Below are positions 2,869 through 4,675 of a DNA stretch of 24,140 nucleotides, piece after piece. Location: IMG/VR virus record IMGVR_UViG_2713896901_000009, positions 1 to 24,140 of that record. One strand, given 5' to 3'. The notes below the pieces were generated by a model that was given only the letters and a program-made list of their open reading frames with translations, searched no databases and was not told the DNA's origin. This stretch comes from a virus. Lineage: Duplodnaviria > Heunggongvirae > Uroviricota > Caudoviricetes. Positions within the stretch are counted from its first letter, which is position 1. The number at the start of each line of letters is the position of its first letter. The translations under genes and the position numbers were made by a program.

Positions 2869-3792
2869 TCAGTAGTTATGTACTGAAGGAGGCAATTCTT
2901 TATTCTTAAGTCTCATCCATGCGGAAAGATTCGTTGGTCCGTCTGGCTCATTGATATCAACATCTCGTGTGTGGTTGATTAAAACGTCTCTCGCCATTCC
3001 GATAACATACGAGAACTCATGACCGTAGTCGTAGCATCTGCCGGAATAGTTCGATTGAATTTGTTTTAATGCCGGATACAGTTCGCGGAATAATGCCTGT
3101 GAACGGTTGGCATAATCCCATAACCATACAAGGCTGTTTGCTTCTTTTGCAGAAAGCTCGTTGGTTTTCTTCTCTTGTTTTCCAATGAACTCACCTTCAA
3201 GTGGAACTCGAGCTGCAAGTGATAGTGCTTCGGTAAACTGCTCCTCACTGATTTCTTTGTACGAACATCCAAAATGGGATTTTAGTGACGACCACATGGT
3301 GATCATCGCCTTAGCCTGTTTTTCTTTTGGCAGAGACTGACCGCGACTCATGACGAGTTGTTTAATGGCTTCCTGCTGTTCAGTGGTGATTTTCCCCGGC
3401 AATGCCTTTTTAGCTTTGCGCGGGTTAATCACATGGCCTTTAGTCCAGTACTCGTAGAGCACATCGTCACACTCTTCCTGATACTGGATTACCTTGTCGC
3501 GGATTTCAGGGCGGACTTTGTTAGGACTGATGGTTTGCAGCCAGCCATTCAGTTTACGCAAAGCAAGGCAAATCATGGTCTGCACACCACCAACTGAAGG
3601 TATTGCGATTTCCACAATACCTTTAGCAAATCTTTGTTTTAACTTTGTAAACTGTGAAGCCCAATCCATACCCATGCCTTCAACGATAGGTTTCATTGGG
3701 GTATACGGTTCGCCGTTGTGATTGACGACATAAAGCTCTGCGCCGTGGAATGGCACGTTGATAGTAGATACTGCTGTTGCTATACTTTTCAT
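2869..3792 (-). CDS. ant: Antirepressor (Ant-like)
   Basis: 307 aa, ATG at 3792, directly downstream of the arc-like gene and upstream of tailspike, the P22 immI position of ant. The N-terminal region ([11 protein letters not shown]...[13 protein letters not shown]) resembles antirepressor N-terminal domains. Domain assignment is from memory. Confidence 0.65.
3758..3786 (+). promoter_or_regulatory. Candidate sigma70 promoter antisense to the ant 5' end (Psar-like)
   Basis: TTGATA (3758-3763), 17-bp spacer, TATACT (3781-3786). The predicted start near 3793 is directly opposite the ant start codon. Confidence 0.4.
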
Positions 3793-3860
3793 GTCAGTTT
3801 TTCCTCAAAATTTACTGGCGATTTAAGCCCGAGCTACTCGCAATAGCTTGGGCTTTACTC
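3793..3860 (+). ncRNA. Candidate sar-like antisense RNA covering the ant ribosome-binding site and start
   Basis: From the promoter above to a 12-bp stem-loop (AAGCCCGAGCTA / TAGCTTGGGCTT, 3825-3855) followed by TTTACTCATT. About 65-70 nt, the same size, position and orientation as P22 sar RNA. On the minus strand the hairpin has no U-tract, so arc-ant read-through is allowed. Confidence 0.4.
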
Positions 3861-4005
3861 ATTCTGGACAAACAATTCCATCCTTAGCTACTGACTCCTT
3901 TAGTCTCCTCAATACCTCATTACTGAACGACCGATCATCCTTTTTCGCGGACTGCTCCAAAGCCTTTTCCAGCCATTCTGGCATCCTTAATGTCTTAACT
4001 TTCAT
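3859..4005 (-). CDS. arc: Arc-like ribbon-helix-helix repressor (48 aa; below the ORF-track size cutoff)
   Basis: ATG at 4005 with AAGGAG 5 nt upstream, TGA at 3859-3861. Translation MKVKTLRMPEWLEKALEQSAKKDDRSFSNEVLRRLKESVAKDGIVCPE carries the Arc/Mnt RHH signature (LRMP ... RSxSNEV..RL.ES). Confidence 0.8.
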   Translation of the reverse strand: MKVKTLRMPEWLEKALEQSAKKDDRSFSNEVLRRLKESVAKDGIVCPE

Positions 4006-4023
4006 TTTTGCTCCTTTGTATGT

Positions 4024-4073
4024 GGTACGCATACATAGTATTTAGGTACGCATTGATAGTCAATAGATACCTA
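4024..4073. promoter_or_regulatory. Operator-like repeats in the arc/mnt divergent control region
   Basis: Direct repeats GGTACGCAT at 4024-4032 and 4045-4053 (21 bp apart, flanking the -10 of the arc promoter). A 31-bp imperfect dyad TAGGTA...ATTGA-TAG-TCAAT...TACCTA at 4043-4073 overlaps the -35. Confidence 0.45.
4035..4063 (-). promoter_or_regulatory. Candidate promoter for arc-ant (Pant-like)
   Basis: Minus strand TTGACT (4063-4058), 17-bp spacer, TACTAT (4040-4035), about 30 nt upstream of the arc ATG. Confidence 0.45.
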
Positions 4074-4109
4074 CATATCCTGTGGTAAAAAATTATTCAG
4101 GATGCGCCG

Positions 4110-4361
4110 ATGTCTGATCGTAAGTACAAAAACCCTCAAGTGAATCTGAGGCTTCCTGTAGAGATAAAGGAGCGTCTTATTGAACTAGCTGAGGCTAATT
4201 CTCGTTCATTAAATGCTGAGATGGTCGCAGCACTTGAAGCATGGACCGAAAAAAACAAACACATTCAAGCACTAGATCTTGCAACTATAGCATCGCGACT
4301 GATAGAGCTTGAGCATGATGTTGAGAAGTTAAAATGTATGCATGGCAATGGTGAAAAATGA
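4110..4361 (+). CDS. mnt: Mnt-like ribbon-helix-helix repressor
   Basis: 83 aa. The N-terminus PQVNLRLPVEIKERLIELAEANSRSLNAEMVAAL matches the Arc/Mnt RHH fold pattern. Divergent from arc as in P22 immI. Confidence 0.8.
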   Translation: MSDRKYKNPQVNLRLPVEIKERLIELAEANSRSLNAEMVAALEAWTEKNKHIQALDLATIASRLIELEHDVEKLKCMHGNGEK

Positions 4362-4675
4362 AACGTATCGCTATCCTATTGCTCCTGTGTCTCTCGAGCA
4401 TAGCTAACGCAGAAACAAAATCAGACGATAGCAGTTTTGATGAAATACAAGGCCTCATGATAGCTTCGAAAATGGCTGGTATGTGTGGTGCAATCAAACA
4501 AATGGCAATATTCCAAGAATCTACAAACATGCCGGGTGGGAATGAATTCTTACAGAGATTCCTTACTACAGAGCAAGCAAGGCTTGGGATGACTCCGCAG
4601 CAATTTCTTGAAGCATGTCAGAAATCAATCTCTATTTATACCACCTATTACAATATGAGCTCTGAGAAAAAATAG
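4358..4675 (+). CDS. Small secreted protein of unknown function, translationally coupled to mnt
   Basis: 105 aa. ATG overlaps the mnt stop (ATGA). Sec-type signal peptide MKRIAILLLLCLSSIANA with AxA site; mature part has two Cys. No family recognised. Confidence 0.6.
   Translation: MKRIAILLLLCLSSIANAETKSDDSSFDEIQGLMIASKMAGMCGAIKQMAIFQESTNMPGGNEFLQRFLTTEQARLGMTPQQFLEACQKSISIYTTYYNMSSEKK

Follow-up and report, generated by a model that had tools for sequence, protein, structure and literature searches.

Within the 24,140-nucleotide stretch of DNA analyzed here (the window), the 104-bp gap between an arc-like gene and the gene at the mnt position is probably a control region that serves an immI-type antirepressor module in both directions, working along the lines that we propose below from its sequence. 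The gap runs from the arc-like start at 4005 on the minus strand to the mnt-position start at 4110 and so covers 4006-4109, as had been described before, with a core at 4015-4081. It holds three phased copies of one short element, placed in two back-to-back promoters, and this arrangement is very probably an RHH operator array combined with divergent promoters. The window is a P22-like (Lederbergvirus-type) E. coli prophage.

The immI-type locus and its genes

The 521 bp around the control region are 99.6% identical to chromosomal prophages, for example in E. coli UMNF18. Besides UMNF18, the O104:H4 strain 2011C-3493 carries the module. Of 5426 complete E. coli genomes, 147 have it in some form, as do many other Enterobacterales. 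Two phages, Salmonella phage SEN22 and coliphage CUS-3, are partially related.

On the minus strand, the tailspike gene (666-2690) lies next to ant (2869-3792), which encodes the antirepressor and is the regulated output of the module. The Ant protein matches the Pfam domains P22_AR_N (152.9 bits) and P22_AR_C (103.6 bits) and shares 57% identity with P22 Ant. The 66-bp gap between arc and ant contains a putative sar-like antisense RNA (3793-3859, plus strand). It matches Rfam RF00262 over the full model length with 29.3 bits, under the gathering score of 43 (E = 0.0017), and both its strand and its position are those of sar in P22. A candidate sar promoter, TTGATA/17/TATACT with an upstream TG (3758-3786, plus strand), ends 7 nt before the sar-like RNA and lies within the first codons of ant, like in P22.

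The first gene of the ant operon is arc-like (3859-4005, minus strand) and encodes a 48-aa RHH protein with the N-terminus MKVKTLRMPEW. This protein scores 25.1 bits with Pfam Arc (cutoff 20.4) and, over 39 aa, shares 31% identity with P22 Arc. Its gene starts with an ATG at 4005 and has a Shine-Dalgarno sequence, AAGGAG, at 4016..4011. A longer arc reading frame of 57 aa starting at 4032 was rejected: it lacks a Shine-Dalgarno sequence, the inferred transcription start lies downstream of its first codon, and the MKVKT start is the one conserved in relatives.

On the other side of the gap, the mnt-position gene (4110-4361, plus strand; Shine-Dalgarno AGGA at 4099-4102) encodes an 83-aa RHH protein with the beta-strand NPQVNLRLP. 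It scores 40.2 bits with Pfam Arc, and its top PDB match is 1mnt. Its RHH domain shares 42% identity with P22 Mnt over a stretch of 36 aa (residues 8-43) and 47% with P22 Arc over 32 aa, and in the C-terminal half no sequence similarity to P22 Mnt was found beyond about residue 45-48. Chain G of PDB 9pio, a 79-aa "Arc family DNA-binding protein", is a weak match to the 83-aa protein (E = 0.004). The stop of the 83-aa gene is overlapped (ATGA) by a 105-aa reading frame at 4358-4675 on the plus strand. The product of this frame has a signal-peptide-like N-terminus (MKRIAILLLLCLSSIANA) and matches phrog_19844, a group of unknown function, and no Pfam match was obtained for it. The frame is probably co-transcribed from a promoter active in the prophage.

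Taken with the homologies of the parts, the gene order tailspike, ant, sar-like RNA, arc-like gene, gap and mnt-position gene makes the locus syntenic and homologous with immI of P22, for which we used the annotation in BK000583 and X01916 as reference. Both have mnt, control region, arc, sar (in the window a sar-like candidate) and ant in this order beside the tailspike gene. Furthermore, they share an Ant homologue, Arc-family RHH repressors on both sides of the control region, and a strong leftward promoter whose spacer and start site both carry repeats of the repressor type. The earlier proposal of a divergent control region, here for a P22-immI-like module, is supported, with an Arc-family RHH gene and a mnt-position RHH gene as its flanks, followed by the sar-like RNA, Ant and the tailspike.

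The preliminary description had also remarked that the putative operators differ from those of P22. Indeed, neither Oarc (ATGATAGAAGCACTCTACTAT) nor Omnt (GGTCCACGGTGGACC) of P22 was found anywhere in the window with up to 3 mismatches, and alignment of the gap to the P22 control region revealed no homology. Other differences concern layout and proteins. The gap measures 104 bp in the window and 90 bp in P22. Whereas Pant and Pmnt of P22 overlap almost fully, with the -35 of one beside the -10 of the other, the promoters in the window stand back-to-back with starts about 60 bp apart. P22 uses two different, adjacent palindromes, and the window has three phased copies of one element. Finally, past about residue 45 the mnt-position protein and P22 Mnt have C-terminal domains of unrelated sequence. 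Regions of the immI type are highly variable, and only the P22 version has been studied (Villafane et al., PMC2629481). Our search of the literature on the variant described here found no functional study.

Promoters and repeats in the control region

Relatives of the control region were gathered as 80 IMG/VR loci with the 83-aa protein and 80 with the Arc-like protein, plus 23 loci from contigs of one genome per species. After removal of redundancy, 27 control regions remained, with flanking proteins down to about 50% identity. In these non-redundant relatives, 4015-4081 forms a conserved block, of which 4045-4081 is free of indels in all 27 lineages. No conservation was detected among the 27 relatives in the arc leader (4006-4014) or the mnt leader (4082-4109). 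Non-promoter positions that are invariant or nearly so in the 27 lineages include GTA 4018-4020, G4024-G4025, GCA 4029-4031 and TACG 4047-4050. To obtain chance levels, the 104-bp gap was shuffled 2000 times with dinucleotides preserved; 42 shuffles had a direct repeat of at least 9 nt, 9 had a dyad matching at 14 of 18 positions, and none had a tandem unit matching at 16 of 21. The features of the control region exceed chance, and conservation is stronger evidence for this than the shuffles.

The leftward, Pant-like promoter (4035-4063, minus strand) consists of TTGACT (4063..4058), a 17-bp spacer and TACTAT (4040..4035), matching the consensus at 9 of 12 positions, with an inferred start near 4028. 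Its position relative to arc is that of Pant in P22. By itself such a match is unremarkable, with 3 promoter-like sites in the 800 bp scanned where 1.9 are expected. Among the 27 relatives, little or no variation occurs at any of the six -35 positions or in the TA..AT of the -10. The minus-strand promoter TTGACT/17/TACTAT noted in the preliminary description thus lies where it had been placed and is conserved.

That description had, however, overlooked a rightward promoter. The Pmnt-like promoter at 4053-4081 on the plus strand, TTGATA (4053-4058)/17/TATCCT (4076-4081), also matches the consensus at 9 of 12 positions, with a putative start near 4088. In the 27 relatives, TTG.T. of its -35 (4053-4058) and T4076, A4077 and T4081 of its -10 (TAnnnT) are invariant, and other lineages have TACTAT, TATATT or TAATAT in place of its -10. 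The -35 hexamers of the two promoters overlap by 1 bp, at 4058. Since promoter-diagnostic positions are invariant on both strands, the gap holds two promoters rather than one. We also searched for a Pmnt that overlaps the leftward promoter in the manner of P22; no acceptable hexamers were found at the matching positions, and TTGATA/17/TATCCT is conserved instead. A terminator-like call on the plus strand was discarded for its weak stem and poor T run.

Two exact copies of the repeat GGTACGCAT, 21 bp apart, had been reported around the leftward -10, and both are present: copy 1 (4024-4032) at the start site of the leftward promoter, and copy 2 (4045-4053) within its spacer, abutting the -35 of the rightward one. 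Across the window of 24 kb these two are the only exact copies, and the search for further copies of the motif elsewhere in the window yielded none beyond chance. The repeats extend to tandem 21-nt units (4024-4044 and 4045-4065) that are 76% identical. A third, variant copy, GATACCTAC (4066-4074, plus strand), lies 21 bp from copy 2 within the spacer of the rightward promoter. Promoter hexamers apart, conservation in the region is highest in these three copies. The three copies share the consensus GGTAYGYAY, a 9-10-bp element, and their invariant TA cores are centered at 4026.5, 4047.5 and 4068.5 in the 27 lineages. A spacing of 21 bp corresponds to two helical turns, which puts all three copies on the same side of the DNA; this spacing is partly forced, because each copy takes the same place in a 17-bp spacer.

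The copies differ in their surroundings and in how they are conserved. Copy 1 is embedded in the near-palindrome GTACGCATAC (4025-4034) and in a 17-bp dyad, GTATG-N7-CATAC (4018-4034). Its family consensus is G-G-T-A-Y-G-C-A-T-A-C, and in several lineages it forms the perfect palindrome GTATGCATAC. A second, wider dyad, the inverted repeat CTTTGTATG / CATACATAG (4014-4038, center 4026), covers the start site of the leftward promoter; its GTA 4018-4020 and AC 4033-4034 are invariant, and promoter hexamers do not explain them. In copy 2, TACG 4047-4050 and ATTG 4052-4055 are invariant, and in copy 3, TA 4068-4069 and A4073. About half of the lineages have a direct repeat, GGTAYGYAC (GGTACGCAC or GGTATGTAC), as their copy 3. 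On the minus strand, copy 3 of the window reads TAGGTAtct, and as such it forms the outer right arm of a 31-bp dyad.

This imperfect 31-bp dyad, with an ATTGA-TAG-TCAAT core over the -35, had been noted earlier. It is found at 4043-4073 (center 4058) as TAGGTAcgcATTGA-tag-TCAATagaTACCTA, with 11 of 14 positions matching between the arms, and is the dyad that only 9 of the 2000 shuffles reach. A search for inverted repeats gave arms of 18 nt, 4039-4056 and 4060-4077, with 78% complementarity. The core consists of the abutting -35 hexamers TTGATA (plus strand) and TTGACT (minus strand), and the outer arms TAGGTA/TACCTA are copies 2 and 3. The 31-bp dyad therefore amounts to copy 2, the pair of -35 hexamers and copy 3, so that repeats and dyad are not independent sites. 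The view that they represent two separate repressor sites on one promoter is not supported in that form, given that they share copy 2 and that the core is made of two -35 hexamers. The region also contains ATAG boxes that overlap promoter hexamers, namely CATAGTA 4034-4040, GATAGTC 4055-4061 and AATAGAT 4062-4068.

Some further structures were considered and set aside. Neither dyad was accepted as an RNA element. Shuffled sequences fold as well as the start-site dyad (z = -0.97), the first arm of which precedes the inferred start. The 31-bp dyad is predicted to fold as RNA (z = -3.1), yet it sits between both inferred start sites. A long inverted repeat, 3970-3991 / 4095-4116, was treated as chance; its left arm is coding and is replaced in loci of the CUS-3 type.

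RHH dimers read short repeated subsites, direct or inverted, and bind cooperatively via helical phasing. Operators with multiple repeats are known for the RHH proteins omega of pSM19035 (heptad arrays), MetJ (met-boxes) and NikR (half-sites two turns apart). A repressor-type array of this kind, with at least two short subsites in whole-turn phasing beside an RHH gene, is present in the gap and conserved in 27 lineages. In subsite sequence and in the 21-bp period it differs from the omega, MetJ and NikR operators, and the likeness lies in the RHH fold.

Assignment of the array and proposed mechanism

The beta-strand of the 83-aa family, Y(K/R)(N/H)PQVNLR(L/M)P, is invariant in the 80 IMG/VR and 23 genome loci. 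Elsewhere the proteins diverge down to about 50% identity, and different C-terminal domains are swapped in, so that total length ranges over 80-132 aa. The GGTAYGYAY array accompanies the PQVNLRLP strand through all of these C-terminal domain swaps, a co-occurrence that is partly built in because the loci were selected by similarity to both proteins. At the arc position, at least two types of N-terminus occur, one with MKVKTLRMPEW and the other with SPSSVRFPDE or EPVSVRMP, and essentially the same array is found with both.

Orphan genes of the 83-aa type, without arc or ant, occur in Moellerella and Providencia (L172-L175, about 1100-1200). In otherwise unrelated upstream DNA, these loci keep an exact GGTACGCATTGATA, with GATACC copies 10-11 bp away. 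The upstream order is a LexA-box-like palindrome (CTGTATACATACACAG, or ...ACAA) followed by GATACCTAC-TT-GGTACGCAT-TGATACC, so that GATACCTAC recurs 11 bp upstream of GGTACGCAT. A TTGATA/17/TAGAAT promoter is present, and an 8-bp inverted repeat, CACCTATC...GATAGGTG, brackets its -10 and the Shine-Dalgarno sequence; GATAGG inverted repeats are found as well. Copy 2 is the sole array element retained in the orphan loci, which lack the leftward promoter. Its retention before the orphan genes could be residual homology.

From P22 it is known that Mnt represses Pant at the start site and that Arc binds in the spacer. Copy 1 of the window is at the Omnt position of P22 and copy 2, in the leftward spacer, at the Oarc position, and copy 3 has the corresponding place in the rightward spacer. 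Reportedly, Knight and Sauer found in 1989 that Arc and Mnt owe their operator specificity to N-terminal residues. The two proteins of the window share no BLAST similarity with each other, and their beta-strands are dissimilar (V/T/R in the 48-aa protein vs Q/N/R in the 83-aa protein), which makes two specificities plausible. Co-inheritance of the array with the strand, together with the retention in orphan loci, indirectly favors the mnt-position protein as reader of GGTAY, an assignment to which we give nearly even chances.

Assigning sites by covariation with protein type was attempted and abandoned. The DNA-contacting residues of both proteins are nearly invariant, so that a natural specificity swap cannot serve for the assignment, and the single column that tracks the Arc-like type, 4038, is phylogenetically confounded. 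At this position, the third base of the leftward -10, T (TAATAT) occurs in 5 of 6 type-2 lineages vs 3 of 41 of type 1, a distribution confounded in the same way. It weakly hints that the Arc-like protein contacts position 4038.

From the anatomy of the region, its conservation and its co-inheritance with the DNA-reading strand of the 83-aa protein, we infer binding and regulatory effects as follows. In the lysogen, the 83-aa repressor would be made from the rightward promoter and bind copies 1 and 2 cooperatively through its putative C-terminal oligomerization domain, on one face of the helix. With both copies filled, the ant promoter would be bracketed at its -10 and start site, and RNA polymerase blocked; in the proposed scheme, this bracketing keeps arc-sar-ant silent and leaves the repressor's own promoter open. 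Copy 3, a variant and the weaker site, lies in the rightward spacer and may provide negative autoregulation at higher repressor concentration. After infection or derepression, the ant promoter would yield the 48-aa Arc-like protein, which would feed back on that promoter. Its site is expected within 4015-4081, candidates being the start-site dyad GTATG-N7-CATAC or bases near 4038. The sar-like RNA would add antisense control of ant.

Instead of one element used three times, the repeat pair could be the operator of one repressor and the 31-bp dyad that of the other, in the manner of Omnt and Oarc of P22. Such a division would suit the dissimilar beta-strands and the lack of similarity between the proteins, from which two specificities are expected. 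Copies 1 and 2 touch the ant promoter alone, as fits Mnt, and the dyad, which lies beyond chance in the shuffles, spans both promoters, as fits Arc, which represses both in P22. However, copy 2 is common to both sites and the same 9-bp element builds both, while the conservation of the dyad core is explained by promoter function. Moreover, the outer arms are not kept as an inverted repeat, copy 3 being direct in about half of the lineages, and the dyad is unchanged when the Arc-like type changes. We consider separate operators unlikely. An exchange of roles, with the 83-aa protein reading the ATAG boxes and the 48-aa Arc-like protein the GGTAYGYAY copies, seems less likely still. It draws on the resemblance of PQVNLRLP in the 83-aa protein to PQFNLRWP in P22 Arc: the 83-aa protein carries the Q-N-R strand with which P22 Arc reads TAGA boxes and might therefore read ATAG at 4035, 4056 and 4063. 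TGATAGT at 4054-4060 matches the left half-site of P22 Oarc, TGATAGA, at 6 of 7 positions. The ATAG boxes stand 10-11 bp from the GTAC cores, which gives the whole region a 10.5-bp phasing, and 4038, the one column tracking the Arc-like type, is G in ATAG and T in type-2 lineages. Yet the boxes are less conserved than GGTAY (A4056 is replaced by C in 9 and G4038 by T in 6 of the 27 lineages), and most of their conservation is explained by promoter hexamers. Orphan genes that have no Arc-like partner keep GGTACGCAT, and the association at 4038 suffers from the confounding mentioned above.

The most skeptical reading assigns no operator function to the gap and derives its repeats and dyad from a 21-bp tandem duplication and the mirror symmetry of divergent promoters. 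The dyad core does consist of two -35 hexamers, the units are 21-nt tandem repeats, and their spacing is constrained by promoter spacers. This origin would leave unexplained that non-promoter positions are near-invariant in 27 lineages in which the leaders and most protein positions have diverged, and that copy 2 survives at orphan loci without the leftward promoter. We regard it as highly improbable.

Related modules and the place of this switch

Loci of a different immI type, with unrelated specificity, show the same design, which speaks in favor of the proposed model. In the siphovirus-like prophage of E. coli MS 196-1 (L005, 2163-2270), and also in L028 and L036, CTACACCGTG occurs twice as direct repeats 21 bp apart that flank the -10 of a TTGACT/16/TAGTAT promoter. 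L005 furthermore contains the palindrome CTACACtGTGTAG, abutting -35 hexamers and a third repeat copy over the mnt-side promoter. It thus shares with the window the abutting -35 hexamers and two direct repeats, spaced by 21 bp, around the ant-side -10. On the other hand, its repeat CTACACCGTG resembles the Omnt core and that of the window differs. The arc- and mnt-position proteins of L005 have a common beta-strand, RDI(A/S)PLGIRIP, and are 57% identical over 35 aa, in contrast to the dissimilar pair in the window.

Several relatives carry extra mnt-type genes in tandem: L005 (2528-2779), L028, L036, L179, L180, and L002 (3384-3632). Among them, a gene of the window's 83-aa type is the second gene behind a P22-type mnt, and the GGTACGCAT pair was not found nearby. 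CUS-3 presents the converse case, a second mnt that is of the P22 type, and the Omnt sequence of P22 was not found within 5.8 kb of it. The tandem extra genes may provide immunity in trans against the antirepressor promoters of other phages.

The comparison also touches the annotation of two known phages. CUS-3 (L002, CP000711.1) has an unannotated 46-aa Arc-like reading frame, MKVKTLRMPEKLEKILEEKAKEECRSFSAEVIKRVLDSLKREGVMV, at about 2856-2996 on the minus strand, and the same control region adjoins it directly on the right. In the record, this stretch bears no label but "bsq2 boundary sequence", and a small Cys-rich reading frame lies between the Arc-like frame and ant. CUS-3 has been described as apparently lacking arc (PMC2629481). 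In SEN22, ant is split by a transposon, and the RHH repressor of the 83-aa type, SEN22_18 (L001, 2833-3090), is named "partition protein ATPase" in RefSeq and in PHROG 795/2685. For a small RHH protein, this label is apparently an error that has spread between annotations.

As a purely functional analogy, OR of phage lambda has three related but unequal sites between the divergent promoters PR and PRM. By this analogy, the promoter on the lytic side would be closed by two sites in the window, and autoregulation would fall to the third, which lies in the promoter of the repressor itself. The window differs from OR in the use of RHH rather than HTH proteins, in the 21-bp spacing, in giving no sign of activation, in the antirepressor as output, and in promoter layout.

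The locus keeps the parts list of P22 immI, the "ant moron", with rewired operators and promoter layout, and is not a new kind of system. A specialist will not find the region surprising; it is a worthwhile and easily testable one. The immI switch of P22 is a textbook example and the classic model of RHH-DNA recognition. It is possible, if rather doubtful, that P22 is the exception and that the common enterobacterial immI switch is a tripartite operator of one element in back-to-back promoters. In that wider picture, a modular RHH reading head would be fused to interchangeable oligomerization domains, and some types would have one reading strand common to the proteins at the arc and mnt positions. 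Mnt-position genes present as extra or orphan copies would then confer immunity by silencing, in trans, the antirepressors of newly infecting phages of this type, with the Providencia orphan standing alone behind its LexA-box-like palindrome.

Antirepressor modules decide whether their own and co-resident prophages stay silent. If the proposed model holds, the region would represent a natural second solution to the same regulatory problem that P22 solves, and a clean system in which one RHH reading head is combined with different oligomerization domains. Cross-immunity between prophages would then be predictable from their operator and beta-strand types.
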